Positions 36,595 to 59,188 of a stretch of 64,000 nucleotides of DNA are shown here, one piece after another. Position numbers and translations under genes: made by a program. The stretch covers positions 448,001 through 512,000 of the forward strand of contig CAVSOU010000007.1 in the NCBI GenBank assembly GCA_963729625.1, read 5' to 3'. The notes beneath the pieces are model-generated. The model saw only the letters and a list, made by a program, of their open reading frames with translations. It was not told the DNA's origin and searched no databases. The DNA is from an uncultured bacterium (GTDB lineage: Bacteria > Chloroflexota > UBA5177 > JANWHV01). Numbering within the stretch: the first letter of the stretch is position 1; the number at the start of each line of letters is the position of its first letter.

Positions 36595-39500
36595 TTAACC
36601 GGCGGCGTGTGCCAGGAGACGAGATCCGTGGCGCAGCGACTCCACGCCTGCGGCAATCGGCGTCTCCGCGATCTTCTCACTGGGCCGGCCAAGATAGTAG
36701 CCCTGAACGCCCTGCACGCCGCGCGGGAGCGTAACCCCTCCCGGGCCGCACTGCCGAACGAAGTCGAGCATCTCCCGTGTCTCGATGCCCTCGGCAATCA
36801 CGTAGGCGCCCATTCCGCTCGCGATGGAGATGATGCCCGCGAGCACGGCCCTCGCGGTCCTGTTCGTGAGTGCTCCATGTACCACGCCGCTATCCACCTT
36901 GATGAAGTCCATCGGAAGCTGGCTCAGCATCTCCAGCCCCGCGTTGCCGGCTCCCGTGTCGTCAAGCGCCAGCCTGAAGCCCGACCCGCGCAATCGCTTG
37001 GCATCACGCACGACCATGGCCAGACGCGCCATCGAGCGCTCCGTCAGCTCGAGCACGACACGCTCCGGTGCCAGCCCCGCTGCGCGCACGGCGCGCTCGA
37101 GGCTATCGTGCGCCAGCAGTCCGTGGTCGAGCGTTTGTGGCGAGATATTGATGAACAACAGCGCGTCGGGCGGAAGCTCCGCGGCCCTGCCCAGGATGGC
37201 GCGCCTGCAGACTGCGTCCAGGTCCTGCGCCCGCCCCATCTTTTCGGCGATATCGAATGCTTCCAGTGGACCGGCCAGGCCGAGCTCCGCGGGAGGCCTG
37301 GCCAGCGCCTCGTACGCAAACACGGTGCCCCGGGCCACGTCCCAGATCGGCTGGAACGCCACGCCCATGATCTGCTCGCTGATCAGTCTGTGTACGATCT
37401 GGCGCTGCGAGGAGGAGCTGATTGACGCACTGTCCTTCACCTCGTCGTACGTCGCGACTCTGTTGCGGCCACGCCGCTTTACGTCCTCTAGAGCCGCGCG
37501 TGCCTGTTGCTGCAAGGTGTCCGAGTCCGTATCTCCCATCGCGAGCGCGGCGACGCCGACACTCACGGTCGCTCCGGCCAGCCTCAGCTCGACTTCCCGG
37601 CGAAGGTGTTCCATGCTGGTGCGCGCCTCCGCGGGCCCGGTATGCGGCAGAATCAGGGCAAACTCGTCGCCGTGCACCCGGAAGGCGCGTGCCTGCCGGC
37701 AGGTATCCCGCAACATGCCGGCGACCTGCGTCAGGATGCGATCGCCGTGCGCCTGACCGCGCCGGTCGTTGATCAGCTTGAACTCGTCGACGTTTATCAG
37801 GGCCAAGGCGACTTGCTCTCCGTGGCGTGCGGCACGCTCGAGCTCTCGCTGCAGCTCTTCGCGGAACCAGCGATGGTTCCCCAGGCCGGTCAGGCCGTCG
37901 GTGAGGGCCGCGCGGGAGAGCTGGCGGTTCACACGCTGCAACGCAGCCATGCTCTCCTTGGTCTGCCTGACATATTGGCGCTGCACCCGGTGCATCATGA
38001 ACGCCGGCAAGGTGAACACGAGGGCGCCCAGATACCCTGTCTCGGCATAGGCGACGCCCAACAGGAGACCCACACCGCAGAGGGCCACGTAGTGCCCGGC
38101 GAGCCAGCGGTACTGGGCCAGCCAGGTTGAGCGTGCCTGCTCCCCCTCGCTCAGACTGAGCGCAGCGGCAACCAATCCCGTGTCGATCAAGAAGTATGCC
38201 GCCGCCGCCATCGCCCCCGGTGCGGCCAGTCCCGGCAAGGACCGCGCTGTGAGCGGGACGCCGGCGACTTGAATCAGCAACGCGGGCGCGAAGCCCGCCA
38301 GCACATGGGTGGCCCAGTTGTACGCCGCCCGGTGCAGGTGCTCGATATGCCGGCCACAACGGAAATGATGGGCGAGTGCGACCGCGGCGCTGACGCACGC
38401 GACGCCCGGAATGCCGCTCAGCAACGCGGCCGCAAACACGAGGCTGACGGACACGGAGACCGTGCCTCGCCCGTAGAGGTCGACCTGCGCCACTTCGGCG
38501 AGCACGGCCAGGGCCATAAAGAGCCAGATTGCCCCCGGCGCTACCTGTACACCTTGCCGCAGGCCGATCGCGGAGACGGCTGCCCCAGCGACGATCACGG
38601 TGGCGACGAACACCCATTGCAGCCAGGAGCGCTCGGCAGGCTCGCCGGGCAGCTGCGGCGGAGCGGGCGGGTTGGAGAGCTCGGGCTCCGCGCTCGCTTC
38701 GCCCGCTACATGGTCCGCCGGCATCCCCCGGCCCAGCGTTGCCGGAAGCGCGTTTGGCGCCTGAAGCGTTTCTGCGGAGGTGCGGCCCGGGTCGTGGGGC
38801 CCTGGCTTCGCTTCAATCCGTCCGCCAGGCACATCGGCCGCACAGACCACACAGTTCCGTCCTCTTGCCTTCGCCGCATAGCACGCCAGGTCGGCAGCTT
38901 GCACGAGGTCCCTGGCGTTCTCGCCGTCTTGCGGATAGCCCGCCACGCCCAGGCTCATGGTCACGCCTATGGGCTCGGCGCTGGTGGCCACCGTGAATCT
39001 CGCCGCCGCCACCGCCTGCCGCAGGCGTTCCGCCAGGGCCTCGGCCTCGGCAGGCTCGCGCTCGGGGGCGACCACGGCAAATTCTTCGCCGCCGAAGCGG
39101 CCGGCCACATCATATTCACTCGCGGTCTCCCGGATGACCCTGCCGATTCCTGCCAGCACCACGTCTCCTGCGAGGTGGCCGTACGTGTTGTTGATGTCGC
39201 GCAGCAAGTCGAGATCGGCCATGATCAGGGCCAGAGGCCTGCCGAAACGGCGGGCTCGTTCCAGTTCGGCGTCGAGCTGCAGGTTGAAGTGTCGCGCGTT
39301 GTCGAGTCCGGTCTTGCCGTCGATGTTTGCTTCATGTTTCAGCTGGGGAACCATCAGCGCTTGATAGATCAACACCAGCGGTGAGAGTGCCGCCACGGTG
39401 TACCAGGGCTCCACCTGCCAGAGCGCGGCAAGCACGAGGCCCATGAGGGCCATGACCAGGTCGAGGGTGACGCTCGTACTCTCCATCACGCCGGATTCGC

Positions 39501-40017
39501 GCCAGGACACTCCCCGCGCCAGGACCAGGGCGAGGCCCAGCAGCAGGTGGTTGAGGATCACATAGGCTATCGCCGTGAGCAGTCCGGCAGCCACGCGCGG
39601 CGGCACAATGCCGCCGGGGACGTCCACGTCGATCTGCAGGTCGAGCCATCCGGCTCCCAGGCCGCCAAGGCTGTACATGGAGAAGTTGAACGGCTGCAGG
39701 TACCAGCTGCGTAGGTGAGGGCTATCGACCCATCGCTCCCTGATCCACTCGATCGCGTGCGGCACGGCGACGAGGAGGATCACCAGGAGCGGCGGCAGGA
39801 GGAGGGCGCCGGCGAAGAAGAAAATGGGGCTGGCATAGAAGAGTATGTGATTCGGCGCTTCGGCCTTGAAGAGCTGCGCGAGGGTGGCGAACACGGCGAG
39901 CGCGGCGAACGTCTCCCAGGTCACCGGCGTCGCGCTGAACGAGTGCAGCGCCGCCGCGGACAGACCAATAGCCAGCAGCATTACGGAGCCCACGTAGGTC
40001 CAGGCCGGCTTCGACAT
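36595..40017 (-). CDS. Multi-TM sensor - GGDEF - second TM sensor - degenerate GGDEF - EAL protein
   Basis: Two hydrophobic blocks; RFGGEEF; RVHGDEF; YEALAR, LELTE, LDDTGAG, AEGIE, QGYYLGRP. Confidence 0.92.
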   Translation of the reverse strand: MSKPAWTYVGSVMLLAIGLSAAALHSFSATPVTWETFAALAVFATLAQLFKAEAPNHILFYASPIFFFAGALLLPPLLVILLVAVPHAIEWIRERWVDSPHLRSWYLQPFNFSMYSLGGLGAGWLDLQIDVDVPGGIVPPRVAAGLLTAIAYVILNHLLLGLALVLARGVSWRESGVMESTSVTLDLVMALMGLVLAALWQVEPWYTVAALSPLVLIYQALMVPQLKHEANIDGKTGLDNARHFNLQLDAELERARRFGRPLALIMADLDLLRDINNTYGHLAGDVVLAGIGRVIRETASEYDVAGRFGGEEFAVVAPEREPAEAEALAERLRQAVAAARFTVATSAEPIGVTMSLGVAGYPQDGENARDLVQAADLACYAAKARGRNCVVCAADVPGGRIEAKPGPHDPGRTSAETLQAPNALPATLGRGMPADHVAGEASAEPELSNPPAPPQLPGEPAERSWLQWVFVATVIVAGAAVSAIGLRQGVQVAPGAIWLFMALAVLAEVAQVDLYGRGTVSVSVSLVFAAALLSGIPGVACVSAAVALAHHFRCGRHIEHLHRAAYNWATHVLAGFAPALLIQVAGVPLTARSLPGLAAPGAMAAAAYFLIDTGLVAAALSLSEGEQARSTWLAQYRWLAGHYVALCGVGLLLGVAYAETGYLGALVFTLPAFMMHRVQRQYVRQTKESMAALQRVNRQLSRAALTDGLTGLGNHRWFREELQRELERAARHGEQVALALINVDEFKLINDRRGQAHGDRILTQVAGMLRDTCRQARAFRVHGDEFALILPHTGPAEARTSMEHLRREVELRLAGATVSVGVAALAMGDTDSDTLQQQARAALEDVKRRGRNRVATYDEVKDSASISSSSQRQIVHRLISEQIMGVAFQPIWDVARGTVFAYEALARPPAELGLAGPLEAFDIAEKMGRAQDLDAVCRRAILGRAAELPPDALLFINISPQTLDHGLLAHDSLERAVRAAGLAPERVVLELTERSMARLAMVVRDAKRLRGSGFRLALDDTGAGNAGLEMLSQLPMDFIKVDSGVVHGALTNRTARAVLAGIISIASGMGAYVIAEGIETREMLDFVRQCGPGGVTLPRGVQGVQGYYLGRPSEKIAETPIAAGVESLRHGSRLLAHAAG

Positions 40018-40276: not shown

Positions 40277-41857
40277 CTAGCCCCAGTAGTCGCTGCCCCA
40301 GCTTGCTGAACCCCAACTGGCCGAACCCCAGCTGGCTGAACCCCAGCTGGCTGAACCCCAACTGGCCGAACCCCAACTGGCCGAACCCCAACTGGCCGAA
40401 CCCCAACTGGCCGAACCCCAACTGGCCGAACCCCAGCTGGCCGCCGGATTGCCGGTCTGAATCGAGGCTGCCGGGGCCACACCGACGTTGGCGCTTGCCG
40501 TGCTGGGGTTCGCTACAGCCGCCGCCACATTGACCTCACCGGCACCCACCCCGCTGGTCGAGGCCACCGGCGAGGCCGTGGCCGTCAGGCGGTACTTCAC
40601 CTGATTCGGGGTCAAGCCGGGTTGGGCCTGCAGCAGCAGGGCCACCGCCCCGGAGACCATCGGCGCCGCCATCGACGTGCCGGACATGCGGAAGTAGTTA
40701 CTGTTGACGATGTTCGCGGGATGAGCGGTCGCCAGCGTATCGGAGGGACTGGCCAGGACGCTGACGATGTTGACTCCTGGCGCCACCAGATCCGGCTTGT
40801 TCATTAGGGACGTAAGCCCCGCCGTCGTGGAGATCGGGATGGTGCCAAATGAGGAGAACGATGCCAGGGTGTCGTCGCTCTGGTTTACCGTACCCTGGTC
40901 GTTCACCGCGCCCACGGTGATCGCGAAGGGGTCGTTGGCCGGGGCGAACAGCACCCCGGCGTTGGTGTTCCCGTTGTTGCCGGCTGAAACTACCACTACG
41001 ATCCCGGCATTCCAGAGCGTTTCCACCGCGGCATCCAGCGGATCCACCTGGTAGCTGTCGGCCACGGTGCTGTTCAGCGACAGGTTGACCACCCGGATGT
41101 TGCCGGTCGTCCGGTTGTTATACACCCACTGCAGACCGTTGACCACGTCGGACACGGAGGCCATGCCCTGATCGTCACTGATCTTGACGTCGATGAGATT
41201 GGCCTGGGGAGCGACGCCGATATAGGCCCCGGCAGAGTTGGCACCGTTTCCGCCGATGATCCCGGCTACATGGGTGCCATGGCCGTAGGGATCACCGCCG
41301 AAAGTCGTCCTGCTATTGATAATCTTCATGGCGACCATGTGCTCTTCGATAGCCGACGCCATGCCGCTGTCCACCACCGCGACGCCAACTCCCTGCCCCT
41401 GATACTGGGACCAGAGGGAGCCGGCGCCAATGGACTGCGGATAGACGTCATTGAGCGTCGCCGCGTTGCAGCAGCTGTAGCTCGACTTGACCACCGGCGC
41501 GTCCAGCGACACCCAGCGCACGCCGGGCATGGCGGCCAGACGGGGCACCGACCGGGCCGGCAGCCGCACGGCCAGGGCGTGGATGATCGGAAGCCGGCGC
41601 GTCACACGAGCGCCCAGACCGTCCAGCCCCCAGTTGACGCTCTGCCCGGCGTCCCGCAGCTGCACGATCACGCCGACCTGGGCGTCGGGGTGCGCCGCAG
41701 CCAGCTGCAGTAGGGCGGGCTGGGCGCGCAGCGGTGCCGCCGCCTGCACCGGAGAGCGTCCTTGCAAGGGCAGGCAGGCCGCTAGGCCCAGCAGCAGGGC
41801 GACACACAATCTGGGCAGGCTAACCGACCGGTTCACTGTTCCATCTCGCGCACTCAA
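40277..41857 (-). CDS. Secreted subtilisin-family (S8) serine protease with C-terminal (ASWGS)10-DYWG tail
   Basis: Signal peptide, prodomain, catalytic VVDSG / HGTHVAG / MSGTSMAAP, SAGN oxyanion motif. Confidence 0.95.
   Translation of the reverse strand: MSARDGTVNRSVSLPRLCVALLLGLAACLPLQGRSPVQAAAPLRAQPALLQLAAAHPDAQVGVIVQLRDAGQSVNWGLDGLGARVTRRLPIIHALAVRLPARSVPRLAAMPGVRWVSLDAPVVKSSYSCCNAATLNDVYPQSIGAGSLWSQYQGQGVGVAVVDSGMASAIEEHMVAMKIINSRTTFGGDPYGHGTHVAGIIGGNGANSAGAYIGVAPQANLIDVKISDDQGMASVSDVVNGLQWVYNNRTTGNIRVVNLSLNSTVADSYQVDPLDAAVETLWNAGIVVVVSAGNNGNTNAGVLFAPANDPFAITVGAVNDQGTVNQSDDTLASFSSFGTIPISTTAGLTSLMNKPDLVAPGVNIVSVLASPSDTLATAHPANIVNSNYFRMSGTSMAAPMVSGAVALLLQAQPGLTPNQVKYRLTATASPVASTSGVGAGEVNVAAAVANPSTASANVGVAPAASIQTGNPAASWGSASWGSASWGSASWGSASWGSASWGSASWGSASWGSASWGSASWGSDYWG
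40292..40441 (-). repeat. 10 x 15-bp tandem repeat encoding ASWGS
   Basis: Units such as GCC AGY TGG GGT TCR; variation between units is synonymous. Confidence 0.95.
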
Positions 41858-42879: not shown

Positions 42880-43404
42880 TTAGGAGCCCCAGTTGGCGTT
42901 TGCATGCACCGCTTGCGCGACGACGGTCGGAACCACCACCGTGGTGATGGCCTGGCCGCTCAGGCCCGACACCGTCGACGCCTGGTACAGCACGGTTACC
43001 ATATCGGTTGACAGCACCCTCGCCGTCACAGAAACGGCCACGGCCGGGCCGCTCACGCTCGCCGTGGTCACGACGGTGTATGTTCCGGGGCTGCCGTCGG
43101 CTACATAGGTGTACGATTCGTTCGCGCCGGTAAGCAGCTCACCCGTCACGGCGCCACCCTTAGGACCGTGGATAGCGTATGTGACGCACTGCACCTGCGA
43201 GCTTGCCGCCGATATCGTGGCGACGACCTGGATCAGTGTGGTGGACGAGCCGGACGCCGTGGGCGCGGAAACGAGCAGAATCGGGTCACGCCGGCTGGCC
43301 ACGGCGGCGTGCGCGCCCTGGGTCTGCGGGAGGATCCCGCCCACGGTGCCCGCCGCTATCGCCAGACCAGCCAGGATGCGTGTGATGCCTGTCAGCTTTG
43401 TCAC
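42880..43404 (-). CDS. Secreted beta-rich protein ending ANWGS (paralog A)
   Basis: GGAGG RBS; signal peptide ending AHA; clear paralog at 52926-53444. Confidence 0.88.
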   Translation of the reverse strand: MTKLTGITRILAGLAIAAGTVGGILPQTQGAHAAVASRRDPILLVSAPTASGSSTTLIQVVATISAASSQVQCVTYAIHGPKGGAVTGELLTGANESYTYVADGSPGTYTVVTTASVSGPAVAVSVTARVLSTDMVTVLYQASTVSGLSGQAITTVVVPTVVAQAVHANANWGS

Positions 43405-44071: not shown

Positions 44072-47000
44072 ATGTGCACAGTCATCGCGCTAGCACGGCT
44101 TGCGTGCCCCTTGCGAGGACGCGAAGCCTGGCGACGCTTGGCGTTTTTTGCATGCCGGACGGGCGTTCCAGCCATACGGGATCGGTCGTCGGCAACGAGC
44201 TGGAAGGATTGTGTCGTGAGCAGCCTGGCACGGTTTGTCAGTGCGTGCCATCTGAGAAGCTCTGAGTGCCGATCGTGGCGACCAAGGCCGGCCATTCCGC
44301 TGGCCGTGCTCATGGTGGTGATGCAAACGCTGGTGCCGCTCGCGGCGACAGCGCCACAAACCGCGCACGCCGACGACACGCCCTGTGTCGTGTCCAGCCC
44401 TGCCGATGACGGCAGTATCGGGACCCTGCGCACGATCGTCGGCCTGGGCGTGTGTCCCGAGATTACCTTCGACACCGCGCAGATGGGTGCCGCCACGATC
44501 ACGCTTACCTCCGGCCCGATCCAAATTGGCACGGGCGACAGCTCAAATCTGCAGACGGTGGCGATAGACGGCGGCAGCGGCGTGACCATCCAGGGAGATG
44601 ACGTAGACTCGATCTTTACCGTCACGACCGGCGGTATTCTGACACTCAATAACCTGACTATTAGTGGCTCCGGCGATAGCGCCATCTGCAACAATGGCAC
44701 GCTAAACGTCGAAGGCTCCGTCCTCTCTGGCAACAGCGGTTTGAATGGCGGCGGCGCCATCTTCAACGACGGGTCCCTCGGCGCCGTCGCCACGCTCACC
44801 GATACGGCCATCACGAGCAACGCGGCGCCCATGGGCGGCGCCATTTACAATTATGGCGACGGGGGTACGGTCACGCTGACAATTGCCAACAGCACGCTGA
44901 GCGGCAACAGCACGTTCGGCGGCTCCGGCGGCGCTATCTCCGACGTCGGCGGTCCCGGCGGCGCCATCTACAACGATGGCGGCGCAGGCGCTGTGACTGT
45001 GGCAATTGCCAACAGCACGCTGAGCGGCAACAGCGCGAACTCCGGCGGCGGCATCTACAACGACGGCGACGGAGGCACGGTGAGTGTGACGATCGCCAAC
45101 AGCACGCTGAGCGGCAACAGCGCGCTCGTGGTCAGGCGGCACAGGATTCCGATTGTCGGCGCCGGCGACGGGCTCTACAACACGGCGGATGGTGGCGACG
45201 CGTCCCTGGCCGTGCACAGCAGCATCCTCGCCGACGGCGCGACCAACGAGTGCGCGGGCGACAGCTCGATCACCGACGACGGCTACGACCTCGCGCTTGG
45301 GACGACGGACGGCAACGGCTGCGCCCTGGACTCCGGCGACGAGGACGTGTCCACGGACGACCCGAGCTTCAGCGGCGGCGAACCCACGAATGGCGAGCTG
45401 GCCGATAATGGCGGAGCGACCCAGACCATCGCACTCGGTCCTGGGAGCATCGCCATCGGCAACGGCGACTGTCAGGCGTACACGGACTCGACGAGCGAAG
45501 ATGTGTATGCGGCCGTCACCACGGATCAGCGAGGGGCCGGATACCCGCGCAAGGATCCTTGCGACATCGGCGCCTTCGAGGCCGCCGGCGATGCGGTAAC
45601 GGCAACGGACACCCCGACGGCCACGGGCACAGCCACCTTGACTGATACCTACACACCGAGTGACACGGCTACGCTCACCGAGCCACCGAGCGACACCCCG
45701 ACGGACACGGCCACGGACACGGCCACCACGATCGATACCTCTACACCGAGTGACACGGCGACGGACACAGCCACGGTCACCGAGCCAGCGAGCGACACAC
45801 CGACCGCGGCCGATACATCCACGAACACGTACACGCCGAGTGACACGCCGACGGGCACGGCCACGGCGACCGATACCTCTACACCGAGTGACACCCCGGC
45901 GGACACGGCCACGGTCACCGAGCTACCGAGCGATACCAGTACGGCTTCCAATACACCGGCTCCCACCAACACAGCAAGCGACACCCCGACTGTCATCGGC
46001 ACGGCAGGCTATACCCCAGCAGCTACGGACACGCCAAGCAACACAGCGACGGATACCTACACGGCCAGTGCCACACCGAGCAACACGCCGACCGTCACCA
46101 ATACGCAGACAGATACGCCCACCAGCACGTACTCGCCAACAGCCATGCCGACCGATACCCACCCCCCAGCGGATACCTCGACGGGCACAGATACGGCGAG
46201 CGTGACCGCGGTCGCCACAGGCACAGCCAGTAGTACGCCGGTCCCGACAGACACGGCCACCGACACGCCCGCTGACACCAGCACAGCCAGCGACACGCCA
46301 ACCCCTACGGACACGGCGAGCGGTACGCCTTCGGCGACTCACGCGCCCACGAGCACGGTCACCGGCACGCCGACGGATACGGCTACGAGCACGCCGACGG
46401 CTACGGCTACCAGCACGAGGACGGAGATGGCGGTCGATCCGCCGGTCAATCTGCCCACGAGCGCGCCGTACGTGCTGTCATCGCCAACCGCGACTGGGGC
46501 GGCCGTGACCTCGAGCACGGCTACACCAGCCGACACCGGCTCCGCCCTTCCGCAGTTCACCAGTACGGCGATGCCAACGGCCACTGGCAGCAGCGCCTCC
46601 GCGGACGCGGCCACCGCCGTGCCACCCGTCCCCACCCCGGCAGGGCACGCCTCGGCGCTGGCAACGAACGGGACCATGCCCGCAACGTTCCAGGGTGGTC
46701 CGGCGATGGCCGCGGTACTGAGCGGCTCCACGCAGATCGCCCTGCGCGTCGCCTCGGATGCCGTGGCCCGCGGACAGACCCTCACCTTGAACGCATCGCT
46801 TGAGTCGTATGGCGGCTCATTGACAGGCAGCGTGACCTTCAAGGAGGGCAAGCTGGTGCTGGGCACCGCCAGCGTGCACGACGGAGTGGCCTTCCTGACG
46901 GTGACCATGCAGGCTGTCGGCCCCCACCATATCGTGGCCGTATATGACGGCCCGCACGGCTTGGTGGTAAGCACGACACCCCTCTCCATCACGGTCGGGC

Positions 47001-47374
47001 GCGCACCGAGTGCGCTGAGCGTCTGGAACCAGAAGCACACGGTAGTGGGCGGGCGCAAGAACGCCTGCCAAGCGCTCATGAGTGCCGGTATCCCCTCGCA
47101 GTCGGGCTGCGAGGCCGTCTTCAGCACCTGGCTGCCCGGGGCCAGGGTCACCGATACGCTCAGCTATGCCGACGGCACGCGCCAGACCTACACCGGCACC
47201 GCCGATGGCACGGGGCATCTACAGCACGCATTCGTGGTGAAGTACGAGCCCTCGCTCCACGCGAGGCACGGGGAGCCCGCTACCAGGGCCTGGATCAGTG
47301 TGGTGGCTACGAGCAAGGATGGTACCGAGACCAAGTCGGCCTGCCTGCGCTTCGCCGTGCTACCCAAGTTCTGA
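44072..47374 (+). CDS. Large surface protein: Pmp-like GGAI beta-helix, choice-of-anchor-Q-like segment, Thr/Asp/Pro stalk, Ig-like domain (true start probably ~44217)
   Basis: GGAIFN/GGAIYN, IANSTLSGNS x3, LADNGGATQT..DQRG..CDIGAFE, GSVTFKEG...LGTASV. Confidence 0.85.
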   Translation: MCTVIALARLACPLRGREAWRRLAFFACRTGVPAIRDRSSATSWKDCVVSSLARFVSACHLRSSECRSWRPRPAIPLAVLMVVMQTLVPLAATAPQTAHADDTPCVVSSPADDGSIGTLRTIVGLGVCPEITFDTAQMGAATITLTSGPIQIGTGDSSNLQTVAIDGGSGVTIQGDDVDSIFTVTTGGILTLNNLTISGSGDSAICNNGTLNVEGSVLSGNSGLNGGGAIFNDGSLGAVATLTDTAITSNAAPMGGAIYNYGDGGTVTLTIANSTLSGNSTFGGSGGAISDVGGPGGAIYNDGGAGAVTVAIANSTLSGNSANSGGGIYNDGDGGTVSVTIANSTLSGNSALVVRRHRIPIVGAGDGLYNTADGGDASLAVHSSILADGATNECAGDSSITDDGYDLALGTTDGNGCALDSGDEDVSTDDPSFSGGEPTNGELADNGGATQTIALGPGSIAIGNGDCQAYTDSTSEDVYAAVTTDQRGAGYPRKDPCDIGAFEAAGDAVTATDTPTATGTATLTDTYTPSDTATLTEPPSDTPTDTATDTATTIDTSTPSDTATDTATVTEPASDTPTAADTSTNTYTPSDTPTGTATATDTSTPSDTPADTATVTELPSDTSTASNTPAPTNTASDTPTVIGTAGYTPAATDTPSNTATDTYTASATPSNTPTVTNTQTDTPTSTYSPTAMPTDTHPPADTSTGTDTASVTAVATGTASSTPVPTDTATDTPADTSTASDTPTPTDTASGTPSATHAPTSTVTGTPTDTATSTPTATATSTRTEMAVDPPVNLPTSAPYVLSSPTATGAAVTSSTATPADTGSALPQFTSTAMPTATGSSASADAATAVPPVPTPAGHASALATNGTMPATFQGGPAMAAVLSGSTQIALRVASDAVARGQTLTLNASLESYGGSLTGSVTFKEGKLVLGTASVHDGVAFLTVTMQAVGPHHIVAVYDGPHGLVVSTTPLSITVGRAPSALSVWNQKHTVVGGRKNACQALMSAGIPSQSGCEAVFSTWLPGARVTDTLSYADGTRQTYTGTADGTGHLQHAFVVKYEPSLHARHGEPATRAWISVVATSKDGTETKSACLRFAVLPKF
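45590..46420 (+). repeat. Degenerate Thr/Asp/Pro-rich coding repeats
   Basis: Recurring TPSDT/ATDT units (ACACCGAGTGACAC). Confidence 0.8.
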
Positions 47375-51600: not shown

Positions 51601-52180
51601 CAAACGCGAGGCACCCCACGAAACCGATACGCCGGTGCCCATGGTCCACCAGGTGCCGCACTATTGCCGCCATTCCCGTCCGGTTGTCAGGGAACACGGC
51701 AGGTATACCGAGGTCCTCGTAGCCGGCGCAAACGCTGACCAGCGGCTTGCCGGACTGTTTGAGACGCTGCAGCGTGCCGCGACCCACGGCGTCGAGCACC
51801 ACGACATACCCGTCCACGAGGTCGCGCGCGTAGGGCACGTACGCTCTCGCGTCGCCCGCCACGGGGACCTCGCGCCACTGAGGGAGCGCCTGGATGCCGA
51901 TGACGCGTCCCCCTGCGTGTTTCGCGGCCCGATGCAGGCCGGCAATAACGTTGCCGAAGAACTCATCGCCGAGGGCAGTGGCGATGATCCCGATGGTCGG
52001 TTGCCGGCGATCAGCGCGACCGCGCGTCACACGCGTGGTCGACGGTCGCACGGCTTCTGCCGATGCGGCCGCGGGTTCCGGGCTGTCGCGCCGGCTTCGT
52101 AGCGTCCCGCGAACCGGACGCGTGCTCACCGGCGACTCTCGCCGCGTAGTCCCAGCCCTACGATGGCGGTGTCTTGCCAC
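48614..52180 (-). CDS. LacI-type ligand-binding sensor - PAS - GGDEF - EAL protein (start possibly 52129)
   Basis: HLVDHGHRRIGFV, GFDD, RQSCGC; DGLWDWDL; RASD..LGGDEF; VEALVRW, DDFGTGYSS. Confidence 0.92.
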   Translation of the reverse strand: MARHRHRRAGTTRRESPVSTRPVRGTLRSRRDSPEPAAASAEAVRPSTTRVTRGRADRRQPTIGIIATALGDEFFGNVIAGLHRAAKHAGGRVIGIQALPQWREVPVAGDARAYVPYARDLVDGYVVVLDAVGRGTLQRLKQSGKPLVSVCAGYEDLGIPAVFPDNRTGMAAIVRHLVDHGHRRIGFVGCLAFEDTRDRFAAYVGALREVGIEPDPGLCFDAPDMNEPGGLAAAEALLATGMTCTAVCAATDQNALGLMARMQDAGYRIPGDLAITGFDDLALNAMAAPALTTVHQDNEALGAEAARLVLTMLAGQHVPSERVFVPSEPVYRQSCGCSSFGVRQRTWQPDSATEGAWATVLRQALAREVCGDAPEAFAKGVRAASAAIDRCIAALEVALHGGPLPLPGELNGACRHLCACAHGVEAANRAIFLLERAVLAVLGAGNHPSNVTDRVNDVLYELRTELLYAARLPFVESMVDAQVSSNQNYHTSLAMLQPGKASVRDLAWLRDTPAVAGCLGLWQHDTPGGELTIAGVYPHDLGSTVQAGACCPPESFPPLDVVERTAPNATLYVPMVLPLQTADRDWGALALLSPVESHTISDAAAVWQWSVLLMAALERELLQSFRVSEERYAVATKGTNDGLWDWDLRDNRVYYSARWKEMAGFADDEVEAVPGSWFELVHPDDRGALERGIAQQIAVGSDRVEYRYRLLHRDGSYRWMLCRGAVVREGSEPVRIAGSQTDISAQQQLETRLAHMAQHDALTGLPNRIAFLDRLEHAMVGADQDAGCASMLSLDLDRFKEVNDTLGHQMGDALLRQVADRLRGSVRASDFVARLGGDEFAIVLPRADGAGAQVVAQQIHAAMQAPFVVEGHPLSIGASVGLAVYPEHGRDAATLLGCADVAMYAAKRGQLGYALYDPSFNGHDRGRHGLASDLRVAVEHGELRLYYQPTTDFASGQVYGVEALVRWQHPHLGLLLPEEFIPLAEQTGVIIPLTKWVLDTALRQWAVWAAKGWHLQVAVNLSICDVRDPDLCATVERLLAQHGVPAQRLTLEVTETVVMADVEGTKASLERLAGMGVRLAIDDFGTGYSSLAYLSVLPLTELKIDRTFVQRMKGHVGDQTIVASTIGLARSLGMDVVTEGVEDGDTYSQLCGLGADSAQGFYLSVPLPAEQLVEWLSRPTVELRPEGS

Positions 52181-52832
52181 TCGGCGCCGCCGACCCGCAG
52201 AGCTCGCGCAGGTCCATAGCGGCTTCCGGCAGGAGGCCGTAACATGCCTCTCATCCCCTTAATTCGCGAAGACTCCTGATCGCGTCTACTTCTTGCAGCC
52301 TACACCAACAGGGTAGCCATGATCACTCCCCCAACAGGGTTGGCAGGTGGAGCGGCGTTATTGCGGACGCGATTGGTCGCCGCTGTGCCACGCGGGAGTT
52401 GAACCAACCACTCGCCGCGCTCTGGCCGATGTCCGGATCGCCTGCGTCTGACGGAGCCACAAGGTTGTGGAGGCATGCGCTGACGGTGGACCGTGCTGTG
52501 CGCCTTCACGCCACGTGGACGTCTGATCGGCCATTGGCCAAGAGGCCCTACGCCGGCAGCGAGGCTGCGGCTCCATGTCGCACGTTTGCAGACCCGCGAG
52601 GCGTCGCCAGACTGGCTAGCAAGAGCGGGCCACCTCGTTCGGGTGATGTGTCGGTCAGGCGTCACGCCTACTATTGGGTTGGAGCGCGGACGTATCGCTA
52701 AGGAAGTGCTCACAACGCCGGCGTGATGGCCATGCAGACGGTGGCTGCGTTCGCCGCGCTCGTCCGAGGAGGGATACAGGTAGAAAGCCAGAGAGGGAAC
52801 ACTGTCCCGGTCGCGATTTGTGTCAAGAGCAG

Positions 52833-52895
52833 GCCAACTGGGGCTCCGCCAACTGGGGCTCGGTAAATTGGGGTAGCGACTACTGAGGGAACTAA
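52833..52895 (+). pseudogene. Remnant 3' end of an S8-type WGS-repeat tail
   Basis: ANWGS-ANWGS-VNWGS-DY-TGA-GN-TAA parallels ...ASWGS-DYWG* of the S8 gene. Confidence 0.75.
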
Positions 52896-52925
52896 CCCCG
52901 GATCTCGATGAAAGGGAATGCATGT

Positions 52926-53444
52926 ATGAAGAAGACAATCTCGGGCCTCGTCCGCGGCACGGCATGTGCGGTAATCGTGGCAAGTGGCCTGGCGGGGTTG
53001 TGGCAGCACACGCCCGGCGCCCATGCCGCCGTGGCCAGCCGGCGTGACCCCATTCTGTTGATTTCCACGCCTACGGCGTCTGGTGCCACGCTGACTCTGG
53101 TTCAGGTCGTGGCCTCCATCTCCGCGAACAGCACGCAGGTGAAAGGTGTCAGCTTCGCCATCCACGGTCCAGTCGGTAGCTCGCTGACGAAAGAACTCTT
53201 GACCGGCGCGGGCGAAACTTACACGTACACGGCGGACCGCGTGGACACCTCCTACTCGACCGTGACCACCGTTACCGTGAGTGGGGCGGCCGTGCCGGTG
53301 ACCGTGACCTCCAGTGTCCTGGCAACCGATATGCAGACGGTGCTGTACCAGTCGACTGCCGTGGCTGGCATGAGTGGCAAGGGTATCACCACGACGGTAT
53401 GCCCGGTCGCCCTGGCCAATACCAATGCCGGCTGGGGGTCGTAG
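52926..53444 (+). CDS. Secreted beta-rich protein ending AGWGS (paralog B)
   Basis: AAAGGGA RBS; shares GAHAAVASRRDPILL, AIHGP, ELLTGA, TDMxTVLYQ with paralog A. Confidence 0.88.
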   Translation: MKKTISGLVRGTACAVIVASGLAGLWQHTPGAHAAVASRRDPILLISTPTASGATLTLVQVVASISANSTQVKGVSFAIHGPVGSSLTKELLTGAGETYTYTADRVDTSYSTVTTVTVSGAAVPVTVTSSVLATDMQTVLYQSTAVAGMSGKGITTTVCPVALANTNAGWGS

Positions 53445-53504
53445 GCAGCCCTCACAGCGGCCGTGCAATAGCAGGTAGTGAAGGTAATGAACGGAGAAAC
53501 AATC

Positions 53505-53687
53505 GTGAGTGGACAGAGGAAGAATCGATCGTTGCCGGTGCTCTGGCGCCGGATCGCCGTGTTGGCCCTGGTAATTCTTGGCACAGGCCTCTTCATCAGC
53601 CAGCCGGCACATGGCCTGGGCGGCACGAATACGGCAGCATGTGCGACATGTCACGTCGACAAGCCGTCCGCCGGCTGGGGGTCGTAG
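53505..53687 (+). CDS. 60-aa secreted peptide ending CATCHVDKPSAGWGS
   Basis: GGAG RBS plus GTG; basic n-region, hydrophobic core, AHG cleavage site; same terminal codons as paralog B (GCC GGC TGG GGG TCG TAG). Confidence 0.78.
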   Translation: MSGQRKNRSLPVLWRRIAVLALVILGTGLFISQPAHGLGGTNTAACATCHVDKPSAGWGS

Positions 53688-53769
53688 GGGCCACAGCGAG
53701 CAGCTGCAATGGTTGGGTGCGCGGCTCCCGGCCGAAGCTGCGCTCGTGTACTGGACAGGCAACGCTCGG
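53681..53769 (+). repeat. Copy 1 of an 89-bp imperfect direct repeat
   Basis: Ungapped hand alignment with 54024-54112: 69/89 identical. Confidence 0.8.
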
Positions 53770-53798
53770 GGTGCGGCCTAGGCCGCACCCCGAGCGTT
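53761..53798. repeat. Perfect 38-bp palindrome
   Basis: AACGCTCGGGGTGCGGCCT|AGGCCGCACCCCGAGCGTT. Confidence 0.9.
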
Positions 53799-53875
53799 TG
53801 GGCTCGTGGTCAGACCGGCCGGCCGTGGCGCATCCGCTCTGGCCAGGGCCCGCGCAAATCCTGAACGCCTGGCAG

Positions 53876-54030
53876 ATGGCTCGCCGACATCCTGTGAGCA
53901 CATGGGCCACCGGTACCGGATACTTCCGGGGCGTTTCGCACTCGAGGGTAGTAGTTGCTTTGCACGAGCTTGGTGGCAACTGCAGCGACCGGGTAACTCT
54001 CGGAGCCATCGGCTCACTGGGTGGTCGTAG
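53876..54030 (+). pseudogene. Decayed tandem copy of the 60-aa WGS peptide gene
   Basis: MARR..GTGYF..HELGG resembles WRR..GTGLF..HGLGG; EPSAHW-G[t]GG-TCG-TAG resembles KPSAGWGS*; followed by the same 89-bp repeat. Confidence 0.6.
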
Positions 54031-54112
54031 GCGCCACACCGCGCGGCTGCGCCGGTTGGGGGAGCGACTGCCGGTCGCAGCAGTGCTAGTGTACTGAATA
54101 GGAAATGCTCGG
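54024..54112 (+). repeat. Copy 2 of the 89-bp imperfect direct repeat
   Basis: See 53681-53769. Confidence 0.8.
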
Positions 54113-54181
54113 ATCGCGGTGTACGCCGCGTCCCAGCCATGAGTTCTCCCGGGTGTTCGGAACGAGGTCGGACGAGCAGCC

Positions 54182-56989
54182 ATGTCACTACGTGCCCGGG
54201 CCTATGTCGGCAGCGTGCTTGGCGCCAGTGTCGCGCTGAGCGTGCTCGCGCTGCTTCGCTTCGCCCCAACGCTCGCGCTGTGTGAGACCTTTGCCGCCTT
54301 GACCGTCCTGGCCAGCGTGGCCCAGCTGTTCAAGGCCGAAGCCCCCAACCACGTGCTGCTCTACGCCAGCCCCATCTTCTTCTTTGCCGGTGTCCTGCTG
54401 CTGCCGCCCTTCCTGTTCGTTCTGTTGGTGGCTGTTCCGCACATGGTCGAGTGGGGTGTCGAGCGATTGCGGCACAGTCCTCACCTCCGTGCCTGGTACT
54501 TGCAGCCGTTCAATATCGCAATGAACTGGATATCCGGGCTGAGCGCGTACTGGCTGTACGCGCAGGTCAGTGGTGAGAACACCGCCAGCGTGCTTTCGAC
54601 CACCGTGCTCGCGGGTCTGGCCGCCGTTGCCTGCTTCGTCGTCCTCAACCACATCCTGCTGGGGCTGGCCCTCGCCCTCGCGCGTGGCGTGAGCTGGCGC
54701 GAGTCGGGCATGTTCGAGCTGTGGAGCCTGCTCACCGACCTGGTGCTGGCCTGCATGGGCCTGGTCGTGGCGGAACTCTGGCGGATACATCCCGCGTTCG
54801 TCGTGCCGGCCCTCGCTCCCCTGGTATTGATGTACCAGTCCCTGATGATCCCACGGTTGAAGCAGCAAGCCGAGATCGACGCCAAGACCGGTCTGTTCAA
54901 CTCCGGGCATTTCAAGACCATGTTTGGCGCCGAGCTGGCCCGGGCCACGCGGTTTGATCGGCCGCTCACGGTGATCATGGCCGACCTGGACCTGCTGCGT
55001 AACGTCAACAATCAGTACGGCCATCTCGCCGGTGACGTTGTTCTCGCCGGGATCGGCAAAATCATCCGTCAGACGATGCGCGAGTACGATATCAGCGGCC
55101 GATTCGGCGGTGAAGAATTCGTCCTGGTTGCCCCTGAAGCAGGTCTTACAACGGGCGAAAGCCTGGCAGAGCGACTGCGGCAGGCGGTAGCCGATGCTCG
55201 TTTTCCGATCGGGGCAGACGCCGCGCCGATCGGCGTGACGATGAGCCTGGGAGTAGCGTGCCACCCCCTGGACGGGAACACCGCGGAAACGTTGATCTAT
55301 GCAGCGGATATGGCGGTCCTCGAAGCCAAGACCAGGGGACGCAACTGCGTGGTGCGCGCCGCGGACCTGTCATGGGACCGCCGCGTCGCTCAGCCGGCCC
55401 CGCCTGAGCCCGATGCGGCCTCCGCCGGCGCCGTGACGCCGCAGCGATCGTCGCTGCAAGCAGAGGGGCCTCAGATACCGCCCGTCAGGCTCCTTGCGCC
55501 TGAAAGCCTGCGGAGCGCCTCTCCTCCCGAGACAGCCGAGCCAGCGTATCCAGGGACAAAGGCTCTGCCCCTGCGCGCAGGCTGGCTCGGCCAGGGCGCG
55601 GAACGCGATGGCGCGGATCGCGATCTGCCGGTGAGCAGCCAACGCGCGACGCAGGCGCCACCGCGTCTCGCGCGAATGCTTCCCCAGCCTGGGGTGGCCG
55701 TGGCCACGATGCTGCTGGCCATTGGCACAGTGCTTGCGGGGGTGCGGTACGAGGACATCTCGCTGGGATTGCAGCCCTTCGGCGAGATCCTCACGGCCGT
55801 ACTCCTGGCCGCCACACTCGTTCTGACTTACCGGTATCCGATTCATATCCGCCTGCACCTCAAGGTGCAGGTGTCTACGATGGTCTACTACCTGGTGGCC
55901 GCGCTGCTGCCCCTATCGTTGGGCATGGGTGTTGCGGCGCTGGGCACCCTGCTGGGCGAAGTATCCGTGCGCCGGCAGCGCAAGCTCTACCCGAGCGATA
56001 TTGCCACGGCCGTCGGCCGATGGACGGTGTTGGTGTTTCTGGGCACCTTGGTAGCACATGTGCCCGCACAAGGAGATGTCGCCCTGGCGCCGTTGGCGGC
56101 CTGCGCGGTGGTGCTGGCAATGGGCGACCTCCTCACGTTGCCGCTGATCATCGCATCGATAACCGGTGAGCGCCCGCTTCGCGTGCTGCGCGCGCTGGCC
56201 ACGGACACCGCCGTGCCAGATGGCATCCAGTACTTGCTTGGCTTCCTGGCGATTCTCGCATCCCAGCGCGCGGCGTGGGTACTGGTTCTCTGTGCGGTGC
56301 CTGCCGTTCTCGTTTACCAGGCCACGAAAGCCATGCATGAGGTGCAGGACTCCACGCACCATCTCCTGGAGGGCATGGCCGACACGGTAGACCTCCGCGA
56401 TTCCTACACCGGGGGTCATTCGCGGCGCGTGGCGGACTTCTGCCGCCGCATCCTGGATGAACTGGATCTCATGGGCCCCGATGCCGAGATGATCGTCTCG
56501 GCCGCGCGCGTGCATGATATCGGCAAAATCGCCATTCCCGACGCGATCCTCATGAAGCCGGGGCCCCTGACGGGCGAGGAGCGCGCCCAGATGCAGACGC
56601 ACGCGGAGCGTGGCGCCGAGGTGCTGGCCCGCCATCGAGATTTCCGGCATGGCGTGGCTGTTGTGCTGCACCACCACGAGGCGTGGGACGGCAGTGGGTA
56701 TCCGCGCGGGCTCAAAGGGCTCGCAATCCCGTTCGGAGCACGGTTGATGGCCGTAGCGGACGCCTTCGACGCTATGACAAGCGACCGGCCGTATCGCGGC
56801 GCGATGTCAGCAGCAAAGGCGGCAAGTATCTTGCGGCAGGGACGGGGTCTGCAGTGGGATCCTCAAATGGTCGATGCGCTGTTGCGCTGCATCGATGTTC
56901 AAACCGTGCTGGCCGAGCTCGCGGTGCTGCCGAGCCCCGACTGCACGACAGCCCAACGCCCCTCCAGCACGTCCGCGGCAGGCGCTTGA
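54182..56989 (+). CDS. Multi-TM sensor - GGDEF - second TM block - HD-GYP protein
   Basis: N-terminus paralogous to 36595-40017; REYD..FGGEEF; YTGGHSRRV, VHDIGK, HHEAWDGSGYPRGL. Confidence 0.93.
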   Translation: MSLRARAYVGSVLGASVALSVLALLRFAPTLALCETFAALTVLASVAQLFKAEAPNHVLLYASPIFFFAGVLLLPPFLFVLLVAVPHMVEWGVERLRHSPHLRAWYLQPFNIAMNWISGLSAYWLYAQVSGENTASVLSTTVLAGLAAVACFVVLNHILLGLALALARGVSWRESGMFELWSLLTDLVLACMGLVVAELWRIHPAFVVPALAPLVLMYQSLMIPRLKQQAEIDAKTGLFNSGHFKTMFGAELARATRFDRPLTVIMADLDLLRNVNNQYGHLAGDVVLAGIGKIIRQTMREYDISGRFGGEEFVLVAPEAGLTTGESLAERLRQAVADARFPIGADAAPIGVTMSLGVACHPLDGNTAETLIYAADMAVLEAKTRGRNCVVRAADLSWDRRVAQPAPPEPDAASAGAVTPQRSSLQAEGPQIPPVRLLAPESLRSASPPETAEPAYPGTKALPLRAGWLGQGAERDGADRDLPVSSQRATQAPPRLARMLPQPGVAVATMLLAIGTVLAGVRYEDISLGLQPFGEILTAVLLAATLVLTYRYPIHIRLHLKVQVSTMVYYLVAALLPLSLGMGVAALGTLLGEVSVRRQRKLYPSDIATAVGRWTVLVFLGTLVAHVPAQGDVALAPLAACAVVLAMGDLLTLPLIIASITGERPLRVLRALATDTAVPDGIQYLLGFLAILASQRAAWVLVLCAVPAVLVYQATKAMHEVQDSTHHLLEGMADTVDLRDSYTGGHSRRVADFCRRILDELDLMGPDAEMIVSAARVHDIGKIAIPDAILMKPGPLTGEERAQMQTHAERGAEVLARHRDFRHGVAVVLHHHEAWDGSGYPRGLKGLAIPFGARLMAVADAFDAMTSDRPYRGAMSAAKAASILRQGRGLQWDPQMVDALLRCIDVQTVLAELAVLPSPDCTTAQRPSSTSAAGA

Positions 56990-57151: not shown

Positions 57152-59188
57152 ATGGCGACTGAATCGCCCTTCCGCGAGCGTAGCCAACCTCAAGCCGGCG
57201 GCACGTCCGTGCCCGCAAACGGGCGCGACGCGGCGCGACGCACCGCGCGAAGCCGCCGTGCCGAATCGTTCCGCGCTGAACCGGCGACGGACACGTCGCG
57301 CGTCGCCAGCAGCAAGCTTGGCGAGCTGCTGGTCGCGAACGGGAGTGCCACGAGCGACGGCGTGGAAGCGGGCCTGGACGAGCAGCGTCGCACCGGCGTG
57401 CGCCTCGGCGAGGCACTGGTGAGCCTCGGCTACGCCCGTGCCGATCGGGTGGCCCAGGCACTTGCCGCGCAATACGGTCTCGAGGCGCTCAGTTCACTCG
57501 AGTCATCCAGCGAGCGACCCACGTGCTGCACCACCGACGACACCTGGTACCAAACGCACCGCCTCGTTCCACTGTCTGTCAGCAATGGCATATTGCGCGT
57601 GGCTACCGCGGATCCGACGAATACCGCCTTGCTGGCTGAGGCCGCGCGCATTGCCGGGATGCCAGTTCAACCGATCGTGGCCACGAACCGCGACATCGAG
57701 CGGGCGCTTAACTCGCTGTTCGGTCTGCCGGACCTGTATAAGAGCGCCAACGACCTGCTTGAGCGCATGCCGGAAGACAGCGCGTATCAGGTGCTCAGCC
57801 GCGCCCAGAAGACCGCCATCCTCGGCGCACTCGTCGTCTGTCTGGCGGCGCTCCTGCTGGATACAACGGCCACCCTGATCGTGCTCATTACCCTGTTGAC
57901 CCTTCTGCACCTGGCTTCCTGTTTCTACAAGCTGTACCTGCTCAGCCAGGGCGTGAAAGCGGGGGAGACGATCTATTCCGCACCCGAAACCGCGCATCTG
58001 GACGATCGCACGCTTCCTGTCTACACGATCCTCGTCCCGCTGTACCGTGAAGCGGTCATGTTGCCGCAATTGCTCCAGGCACTGCAAGCCCTCGACTGGC
58101 CGAAAGCAAAGCTGGATGTGCGCTTGCTCCTGGAGCAAGATGACGTCCCCACCATCGACGCGGCATTCGCCGCGCGATTACCGGCCTATTTCACGTTTGT
58201 CATCGTGCCGCCCGGATTGCCGCGGGGCAAGCCCAAAGCATGCAATTTTGGCCTTGCCCACGCAAGGGGCAAGTACGTCGTGATTTTCGACGCGGAGGAT
58301 ATTCCGGAGCCCGACCAGCTCAAGAAGGTTTACGCGGCGTTCCAGCAGGCGCCGGCAGACCTCGGCTGCATTCAGTGCCATTTGAACTTCTACAACGCCG
58401 ACCAGAATCTGCTCACCCGGTGGTTCACGGCCGAGTATTCGGTGTGGTTCGACATCCTCCTGCCCAGTGTGCAGGCCGCGCGGGTGCCGGTGCCTCTCGG
58501 AGGAACATCGAACCATTTCAAACGCGATGTGCTCGAGCAGCTCGGGGCGTGGGATCCCTATAACGTGACCGAGGACGCCGACCTGGGAGTGCGCCTCTTC
58601 AAGCGAGGTTACCGCACCGCCGTCTTGACGTCGACGACCTACGAAGAGGCGAATCCGCGCGTCGGCAACTGGCTGCGGCAGCGTTCGCGCTGGATCAAGG
58701 GCTATCTTCAGACCTGGCTGGTGCACATGCGTCACCCGATTGTTCTGTGGCGGGAGCTTGGCCCGCGCGGTTTCCTGGGCATTCAGTTTCTCCTTGGCGG
58801 TACTGTGCTGGTGCTTCTGCTCAATCCACTCTTCTGGGCCCTGGTGCCTCTATGGTTCACCACGCGATCGGCGCTGCTGCTGCAGCTCTTCCCTGGTCCC
58901 GTCTTTTACCTGGGCGCCGCCGCCCTCTACGTCGGCAATATCCTGTTCATTTATCTTGCCATGGCGGGGTCGCTCGGACGCGGATACCATTCCCTCACCA
59001 AGTACGCGCTCCTCAGCCCGGTCTATTGGGTGCTCATGAGCATCGCAGCCTGGAAAGGCGCCCTGCAGCTGCTGAGCCGGCCACACTACTGGGAGAAGAC
59101 GAAGCATGGCCTTGCGCGCTACGCGGTGGTGCCAGCGGCCCTTCCGCCAGACGCGGCAGTGATACACAAGAAGTCGGGGACCCCGTGA
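57152..59188 (+). CDS. Processive GT2 glycosyltransferase with N-terminal MshEN/T2SSE_N domain
   Basis: KLGELLVANG...LDEQ and RLGEALVSLG...LAAQ; FDAED, VTEDADLG, RQRSRW; C-terminal TMs. Confidence 0.9.
   Translation: MATESPFRERSQPQAGGTSVPANGRDAARRTARSRRAESFRAEPATDTSRVASSKLGELLVANGSATSDGVEAGLDEQRRTGVRLGEALVSLGYARADRVAQALAAQYGLEALSSLESSSERPTCCTTDDTWYQTHRLVPLSVSNGILRVATADPTNTALLAEAARIAGMPVQPIVATNRDIERALNSLFGLPDLYKSANDLLERMPEDSAYQVLSRAQKTAILGALVVCLAALLLDTTATLIVLITLLTLLHLASCFYKLYLLSQGVKAGETIYSAPETAHLDDRTLPVYTILVPLYREAVMLPQLLQALQALDWPKAKLDVRLLLEQDDVPTIDAAFAARLPAYFTFVIVPPGLPRGKPKACNFGLAHARGKYVVIFDAEDIPEPDQLKKVYAAFQQAPADLGCIQCHLNFYNADQNLLTRWFTAEYSVWFDILLPSVQAARVPVPLGGTSNHFKRDVLEQLGAWDPYNVTEDADLGVRLFKRGYRTAVLTSTTYEEANPRVGNWLRQRSRWIKGYLQTWLVHMRHPIVLWRELGPRGFLGIQFLLGGTVLVLLLNPLFWALVPLWFTTRSALLLQLFPGPVFYLGAAALYVGNILFIYLAMAGSLGRGYHSLTKYALLSPVYWVLMSIAAWKGALQLLSRPHYWEKTKHGLARYAVVPAALPPDAAVIHKKSGTP

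Follow-up and report, generated by a model that had tools for sequence, protein, structure and literature searches.

A 60-codon open reading frame (ORF) in a 64,000-nucleotide (nt) stretch of DNA from an uncultured Chloroflexota bacterium (contig CAVSOU010000007.1, positions 448,001 to 512,000; hereafter the window) encodes, on evidence that we judge to be about evenly balanced, an exported peptide that is young and restricted to its lineage and has one WGS unit belonging to an undescribed module of protease tails and cyclic di-GMP (c-di-GMP) enzymes. The product of this frame, here called the small ORF, would be a Sec-type precursor that is exported and cut after A-H-G to give a 23-residue peptide or, if uncut, would stay as an N-terminally anchored peptide. 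Its functional part would be the C-terminal AGWGS, one unit of a short linear motif (x-x-W-G-S) that in the same genome also forms the flexible-tail end of secreted proteins of ~175 amino acids (aa) and recurs 6–10 times in the probably unfolded tails of S8 proteases, the WGS-ending genes being placed directly 5′ of membrane c-di-GMP enzymes with a common structured leader. The gene itself may have originated through duplication of a module (the WGS codons, the stop and the leader of the sensor gene) that thereby became joined to a new signal-like 5′ half, with later duplications in tandem (one copy decayed) and to a second contig, C10 (copy intact).

Chance frames abound in this 63% G+C DNA (97 ORFs of at least 30 aa in 7.5 kb), and the open frame of the small ORF alone therefore carries little weight. 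What goes beyond chance is the following: a 19-nt repeat in common with the upstream gene ORF178, the G+C content of third codon positions (GC3), a copy on C10 with purifying-type changes and a third copy in a related metagenome record. The frame was found as the original prediction had described it, from its GTG to its TAG (Table 1), and translates as VSGQRKNRSLPVLWRRIAVLALVILGTGLFISQPAHG followed by LGGTNTAACATCHVDKPSAGWGS. Five of its first 16 residues are basic, these are followed by a hydrophobic core of 15 residues, and positions −3 to −1 read A-H-G; this Sec-signal character of the N-terminus was judged by eye, and the originally predicted division into a signal peptide and a 23-aa peptide holds as far as sequence can show. 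A twin-arginine signal was ruled out, the RR being RQ in the C10 copy. The in-frame GC3 is 0.74, against 0.78–0.81 for real neighbouring genes, 0.64 for a same-strand overlapping frame (53399-54097) and 0.61 for the ORF of the decayed copy; an antisense ORF reaches 0.76 since it uses the third positions of the small ORF. A promoter/terminator consensus scan gave 0 sites. Contigs from three RNA/DNA sequencing runs, which represent small shares of the stretch, matched 52600-53051, 53068-53330 and 53880-54072 and none overlaps the small ORF; the second of these is from an RNA library and lies inside ORF178, with 6 differences.

The intact copy on C10 lies inside a 500-nt duplicated segment made of window 52588-52708 fused to 53413-53792, with the intervening 704 nt (an S8-tail remnant and the body of ORF178) missing, and in it ORF178 is reduced to an untranslatable 11-codon stump and the small ORF is intact. 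In the protein database this copy has been called as a 60-aa protein (P0010) and the window copy is apparently uncalled, which bears out the earlier remark that such a gene would easily be missed by annotation. The two copies are 95% identical. Over 324 nt they differ at 15 positions, of which 7 are in the ORF, 6 in a 60-nt spacer 5′ of the frame and 2 in the flank. All 6 spacer changes are 5′ of the GGAG, falling in 43 nt that precede an identical 17 nt before the start. The changes in the ORF comprise 4 synonymous and 3 non-synonymous ones, the latter in codons 3, 5 and 16, and codons 17–60 have 0 non-synonymous and 3 synonymous changes. For the whole ORF the ratio of non-synonymous to synonymous substitution rates is ~0.27 (p = 0.08); for codons 17–60 Fisher's test gave p = 0.019, with a partition that was picked after the data had been seen, and p = 0.003 in comparison with the spacer. 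The third copy was identified by a search among longer proteins as P0158 (225 aa), from a related metagenome record of 3362 nt, the first 60 residues of which correspond to the small ORF read from an ATG at the position of 53487. Its four changes (K>T, R>Q, V>L and I>V) are all in the n- and h-regions, and the residues from ISQPAHG to HVDKP are identical. The three copies are 91–95% identical, and the substitution pattern favours the view that the hydrophobic core and the peptide are under constraint.

As the main alternative we weighed the possibility that the small ORF is a non-functional by-product: repeated recombination, illegitimate or homologous, at the 15-nt WGS units and the sensor leader would have copied the tail with its leader several times, and one of the junctions would by chance have had an open frame with a hydrophobic stretch; such a frame may be transcribed with ORF178 and have no function. 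We consider this possible, if on the whole doubtful. It is consistent with the presence of three tail-plus-leader copies within 700 nt, one of them decayed, with the S8-tail remnant 5′ of ORF178, and with the abundance of open frames in the window DNA. The useless ORF178 stump on C10 argues likewise, because it implies that a DNA segment, rather than a gene, was copied. Set against these points are the gene-like GC3, the GGAG and 17 nt before the start that are unchanged next to 6 changes in the rest of the spacer, the absence of non-synonymous changes from codons 17–60, a peptide that is identical in the three records (up to DKP in P0158), and the conservative nature of the relative's h-region changes.

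Several further observations weigh against a functional peptide. The selection signal amounts to 7 substitutions and a post hoc partition, and divergence is uneven along the duplicated segment, at 1.7% in a 121-nt block versus 10% in the spacer. The frame of P0158 departs twice after KP, by what we infer to be one-base differences at homopolymers, leaving the WGS tail out of frame, and the ORF178 homologue P0003 (92% identical, from a record of the same 3362-nt length) is also frameshifted; the departure in the P0158 tail may be either an assembly error or real decay. The tandem copy, which is the one beside the sensor gene, has decayed. A search of 40 related genomes brought up no small-ORF relative with E < 1e-3 (best foreign E 0.001), the four other genomes of the genus contained no DNA match, and a search of 5.8 billion protein clusters yielded only the C10 copy and one near-relative record, such that no homologue was found outside the species and a near relative. 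(The 40-genome count, as well as the ORF178-paralogue and 201-genome counts below, includes the unpublished genome G018, on which no claim rests.) The DNA pattern of the mature peptide likewise had no match in genome and metagenome collections. As to the origin of the 5′ half, comparison of its DNA with the 5′ ends of the sensor gene, the S8 genes, ORF178 and the ORF178 paralogues revealed no similarity, every score falling within those of shuffled sequences, and a sourceless 5′ half is equally to be expected of a chance frame. It is because of the species-restricted range, the decayed tandem copy and the relative's out-of-frame tail that we keep the by-product explanation at the level given above.

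With regard to the duplicated segment itself, its non-coding 121-nt block (window 52588-52708, C10:420893-421013) is 98% identical between the two places, versus 90% for the 60-nt spacer, and 33 nt of the block resemble window 41985-42017, within a transposase-like ORF.

The decayed copy downstream was correctly noted in the original prediction, which described it as lacking a clear CxxCH; it has neither a CxxCH nor the hydrophobic core. Its tail and leader (54013-54134) are 75% identical over 135 nt to those of the small ORF, and the tail would read EPSAHWGS-stop if one extra base were removed. A direct protein comparison of the decayed copy and the small ORF within the window was not significant (720/2000 shuffles). 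The C-terminal part of P0158, however, matches the DNA of the small ORF in another frame (E 7e-11), which shows the downstream copy to be a tandem duplicate of nearly the whole ORF.

Table 1. Features of the small ORF and of the associated genes (window positions unless a contig is given)
Feature	Position	Strand	Remarks
Small ORF	53505..53687	+	GTG start, 60 codons, TAG at 53685-53687
Signal-like part of small ORF		+	residues 1–37
Predicted mature peptide	53616-53684	+	residues 38–60
CATCH	53640-53654	+	within small ORF
AGWGS	53670-53684	+	within small ORF
GGAG, Shine-Dalgarno-like	53493..53496	+	8 nt 5′ of GTG
ORF178	52908..53444	+	178-aa secreted-type protein, ends NTNAGWGS; last 19 nt common with small ORF
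ORF178 paralogue	42880..43404	−	174 aa, ends HANANWGS; in intact cassette A
S8 subtilisin-like protease	40277..41857	−	526 aa, tail SWGS(ASWGS)x9 DYWG; Pfam Peptidase_S8 E 1.9e-45
C11 S8 protease gene	C11:61510-63075	−	ends TWGS(VNWGS)x6 DYWGS
S8-tail remnant	52830..52886	+	ANWGS ANWGS VNWGS DY stop; 82% nt identity to end of C11 S8 gene
Second intact copy of small ORF	C10:421106-421288		inside 500-nt duplicated segment
Decayed tandem copy of small ORF	~53870..54030	+	without hydrophobic core, without CxxCH
3′ flank of small ORF	53688..53800	+	two predicted hairpins; second is a perfect 19+19 palindrome, 53761-53798
Second leader copy	54031..54181	+	directly 5′ of sensor gene
Membrane GGDEF + HD-GYP-type (HD_5) enzyme (sensor)	54182..56989	+	935 aa, downstream of small ORF
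Membrane GGDEF-GGDEF-EAL enzyme	36595..40017	−	1140 aa, cassette A
Membrane c-di-GMP enzyme of third cassette	C11:58456-61299
MshEN domain fused to family-2 glycosyltransferase (MshEN-GT2)	57152-59188	+	downstream of sensor

The last 19 nt of the small ORF (GCCGGCTGGGGGTCGTAGG) are identical to the end of ORF178, stop region included. There was a weak extension of this similarity for ~30 nt downstream of the 19-nt block (30/1000 shuffles reached the score), and it was absent upstream, into the CxxCH part (258/1000 shuffles). In addition, the small ORF is without the beta-rich domain of ~120 residues, with AAVASRxDP after the signal, that is conserved in the ORF178 family. Since it has neither this domain nor similarity upstream of the 19-nt block, the small ORF can be said to share a tail with ORF178 and not to belong to its family. 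The family of ORF178 includes the paralogue in cassette A, a second paralogue (C11:63188-63709) and one homologue in a congener (G001), and ORF178 and these three proteins end in NAGWGS, NANWGS, NVSWGS and NAVWGS, respectively. ORF178 had no Pfam or NCBIfam match, and a search with the family alignment of genome and metagenome collections gave no match. Among the 5.8 billion protein clusters there were 9 matches at E ≤ 0.001, and six of the eight that are not frameshifted end in N-x-N/G-WGS. A profile search added 345 more distant representatives, and a WGS end was present in 7 of the 156 family proteins in hand. AlphaFold2 predicted a beta-rich domain at residues 40–158 of ORF178 (mean predicted local distance difference test score (pLDDT) 83) and gave the last ~14 residues, which include WGS, a pLDDT of 54–63. 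Foldseek identified nothing in the PDB at E ≤ 0.001 and the best Z in a wide VIA-align comparison was 4.7, and no fold was assigned to ORF178. Genome-wide, WGS is not enriched at the ends of ORFs (15 of 100,427 stop-to-stop frames, versus 10–28 in permutations); six of these 15 frames are genes described here.

Most of the distant ORF178 family members (~150-aa secreted proteins) have a near-invariant cysteine just past the signal, in the context x-C-R-x-D-P (120/156). This cysteine has a lipobox-like context in 42 of the 120, and 113 of the 120 have no second cysteine. The WGS-ending subfamily has serine at that position, which would fit the replacement of an N-terminal attachment by a tag at the C-terminus.

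The unit at the end of the small ORF, in the form (A/V)(S/N)WGS, is repeated 6–10 times in the tails of two S8 proteases, one in cassette A and one on contig C11. For the 526-aa protease AlphaFold2 folded the catalytic domain and gave the tail a pLDDT of ~25 (with an alignment of 14 rows). A complex prediction of this protease (residues 125–526) with the 174-aa WGS protein (residues 33–174) scored 0.00, which speaks neither for nor against binding. The S8 gene on C11 is in three frames (signal and propeptide; the Asp/His part; the Ser part with the (VNWGS)x6 tail), and its two frameshifts indicate either a pseudogene or an assembly error. Cassette A, for its part, appears to be split by a remnant of an insertion sequence, since ORFs with a DDE transposase match (PF01609, E 3.8e-7) are situated between the 174-aa gene and the S8 gene (window 41854-42780, −).

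The original prediction had drawn attention to the CATCH of the mature peptide, formally a c-type haem attachment motif, and had asked whether the CxxCH or only the WGS is conserved. The comparison comes down on the side of the WGS, which recurs in six of eight family relatives of ORF178, in the members on C11 and in the congener and in the S8 tails. The CxxCH was found nowhere but in the small ORF and its two near-identical copies, and neither the decayed copy nor any of the family tails has one. The confinement of the motif to such copies leaves haem binding unsupported. Moreover, with 432 CxxCH motifs in the six-frame translation of the genome and 6 in that of the window, one such motif in the scanned window is to be expected (0.0008 would be expected in this one peptide). 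The simplest account of the CATCH is that it arose by accident in a young sequence or that it serves as a site for a disulfide or a metal, and as a haem motif it is probably incidental.

A miniature c-type cytochrome or natural microperoxidase, in which System II would attach haem to the CATCH to give a redox or haem-carrying peptide, is nevertheless a reading with some points in its favour. The CxxCH is in an exported context (with export again judged by eye) and is unchanged in the three intact copies. The genome encodes System II maturation genes side by side on contig C9, where ResB (132 bits) adjoins Cytochrom_C_asm/CcsA (125 bits), and CcsBA is described as attaching haem in vitro to CXXCH peptides ranging from 9-mer to 56-mer, two thiols and a histidine being sufficient (PMC8112865). 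Given these genes and the acceptance of short peptides, an exported CATCH could be a haem substrate. There was also a faint resemblance to the N-terminus of NrfH in NCBIfam (E 0.028; 14.5 bits against a cut-off of 134.2), and among the protein-language-model neighbours of the small ORF, all of which were below the lead level of 0.9, small cytochrome clusters were found at 0.82–0.84. On the other hand, the small ORF matched no Pfam family, cytochromes included, and its mature peptide has neither a second histidine nor a methionine as sixth ligand. The three copies are too alike for conservation of the motif to be meaningful, chance CxxCH motifs are present in the window, and the neighbouring genes are c-di-GMP and polysaccharide genes rather than respiratory ones. 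We therefore regard a cytochrome as very improbable. To summarize the comparison with c-type cytochromes and microperoxidases, the likeness consists of a predicted-exported CxxCH in a genome with System II genes, and the small ORF differs from them in that it matches no cytochrome fold or family, lacks a sixth ligand and is conserved no further than its near-identical copies.

The other line of evidence for a module comes from what follows the WGS-ending genes. After the WGS stop there is a leader of ~115 nt (window 53688-53800 and 54031-54150; L045:7290-7410) with two hairpins in all three copies, and both sides were changed in 5 of 43 pairs; three related leader sequences are too few for a covariation test. 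As the distal part of this leader is also found 5′ of the C11 sensor gene, we consider the flank of the small ORF to be the leader of c-di-GMP sensor genes, with termination of transcription or regulation of those genes as its possible roles. Rfam searches of 52000-54400 gave only a chance microRNA match, on the palindrome. Both intact copies of the small ORF are upstream of, and on the same strand as, a GGDEF gene, in a genome with a total of 23 GGDEF matches: the window copy is separated from the sensor start by 495 nt that contain the decayed copy, and the C10 copy has a chemoreceptor gene on one side and, on the other, a 601-aa membrane ORF leading into GGDEF-EAL. This 601-aa ORF and a 574-aa GGDEF-EAL ORF, which together span L045:7857-11241 on C10, have a same-strand overlap of ~150 nt and are probably one frameshifted gene. 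Each of the three cassettes has one of the large membrane c-di-GMP enzymes listed in Table 1 at its end, and an N-terminal multi-pass domain, which has no Pfam match, is common to all three enzymes. A membrane sensor of this type also comes immediately after the WGS protein in the congener G001.

The position of these hairpins raises the question of whether the small ORF is a regulatory upstream ORF, with translation of a short frame and the two hairpins controlling read-through into the sensor gene and the peptide itself being irrelevant. The occurrence of the conserved hairpins 3′ of the stop in all three copies, of the same leader before the sensor genes and of both intact copies 5′ of c-di-GMP genes would fit such a role. 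The distances, however, are long (the 495 nt and decayed copy already mentioned, and ~570 nt in C10), codons 17–60 are kept at the amino-acid level and not just as a frame, and no Rfam family was matched. Of the readings considered, we find this one the hardest to credit.

Immediately downstream of the sensor is the MshEN-GT2 gene. MshEN domains bind c-di-GMP, and on that basis the region looks like a c-di-GMP-controlled polysaccharide locus. No genes for enzymes that modify ribosomally synthesized and post-translationally modified peptides were found among the ORFs scanned (36.5–59.2 kb, with small ORFs covered in part).

The association of tailed S8 proteases with c-di-GMP enzymes extends well beyond this genome. 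Of 201 sampled genomes of the phylum, 31 had an S8 match at E ≤ 1e-30, and tryptophan-periodic tails were present at 22 of the 30 S8 loci examined. The units of these tails included ASWGS, LNWDS, VSWDS, GSWTN, VAWNS, TWTGG, MRWDQ, NNSWS, GQWSG, GNSWS and the 7-mer SYSTWAG. Of the foreign tailed-S8 loci that were fetched with their flanks, 10/16 had a same-strand downstream GGDEF match, and 5 of those 10 also matched the membrane domain of the sensor. S8 proteases with tryptophan-centred tails beside membrane c-di-GMP enzymes are thus common, and a brief literature search found no publication on this pairing by title. One-unit tails on the neighbours of tailed S8 genes in other lineages were not seen among the matches listed, in a list that was noisy, and a search of genome and metagenome collections with the S8 protein gave no related loci. 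The gene that separates S8 from sensor encodes a membrane protein in G191, G035 and G135 and an HD-GYP-like protein in G076. Free-standing membrane proteins of ~240 aa that are encoded in this position in three other genomes (L081:10050-10780, L082:10070-10800 and L083:9920-10650) resemble, by eye, the N-terminal domain of the sensor.

It is the use of the repeat unit singly at this locus, at the ends of otherwise unrelated secreted products and even of a 23-residue peptide, that leads us to argue that function resides in the five-residue unit rather than in a folded repeat domain. The pentapeptide-repeat proteins (PF00805), which have the pattern A(D/N)LXX, are similar in having a five-residue period with a small residue, N or S, and then a large central hydrophobic residue. 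The S8 tail differs from them in having no Pfam pentapeptide-repeat match at E up to 0.1 and no confident fold, and one unit placed at the tip of a flexible tail cannot build a helix of that kind. A peptide with one unit would display a single extracellular WGS to the reader of the multi-unit protease tail, for which the neighbouring membrane sensor, some component of the envelope and the protease itself are candidates, and it would act in the module as a monovalent ligand or competitor. The export and cleavage of the precursor, the WGS as a linear motif with a common reader and the monovalent role are all steps that we infer. The dedicated signal-precursor function proposed for the small ORF in the original prediction is, similarly, a candidate function.

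Two known systems have features in common with the locus. The small ORF has the architecture of the Phr-type precursors (RRNPPA systems of Bacillota), that is, a Sec-type precursor of 40–60 aa with an informative pentapeptide at the C-terminus, and would fit them as a small precursor with a candidate peptide in the same place. Phr pro-peptides are described as being matured by extracellular subtilisin-like proteases, and some as having tandem pheromone units (PMC11343458). In the present case, by contrast, there is no Rap/NprR/PlcR-type or TPR receptor gene adjacent, the neighbours being GGDEF/EAL/HD-GYP, MshEN-GT2 and ORF178, the repeat units are on the tail of the protease itself, and the lineage is another one. 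The LapD–LapG system is similar in that it couples an extracytoplasmic protease to a c-di-GMP protein of the membrane, and its main protease–receptor anchor is reported to be a single exposed tryptophan in a GWxQ motif, for which a 7-residue motif peptide competes (PMC4359373). There the receptor bears the tryptophan motif and its partner is a calcium-dependent cysteine protease, whereas here the tryptophan units are on an S8 serine protease and accessory proteins, and the multi-pass membrane domain of the putative partner enzymes is an unrelated one that Pfam does not match. The locus belongs to neither system.

A bolder version of the peptide reading, which we consider improbable, is that x-x-W-G-S is an extracellular signal read by the adjacent c-di-GMP enzymes and presented in three formats: ten-fold on a self-processed or tethered S8 tail, singly on the ~175-aa tails, and as a minimal 60-aa precursor. 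If true, the small ORF would be the first dedicated precursor of a peptide-to-c-di-GMP cell–cell signalling circuit outside Bacillota, to which its CxxCH might add a redox or haem switch. If, conversely, the small ORF is a dead by-product, the locus would still be a record of recombination at short coding repeats that makes and destroys small genes. Synthetic xxWGS peptides, or the small gene, offer a simple reagent for probing the function of the tails.

Lastly, a gene divergent from cassette A (window 44072-47374, +) encodes an 1100-aa secreted protein that has a low-complexity middle rich in Thr, Pro and Asp and a Big_3_5 Ig-like domain.

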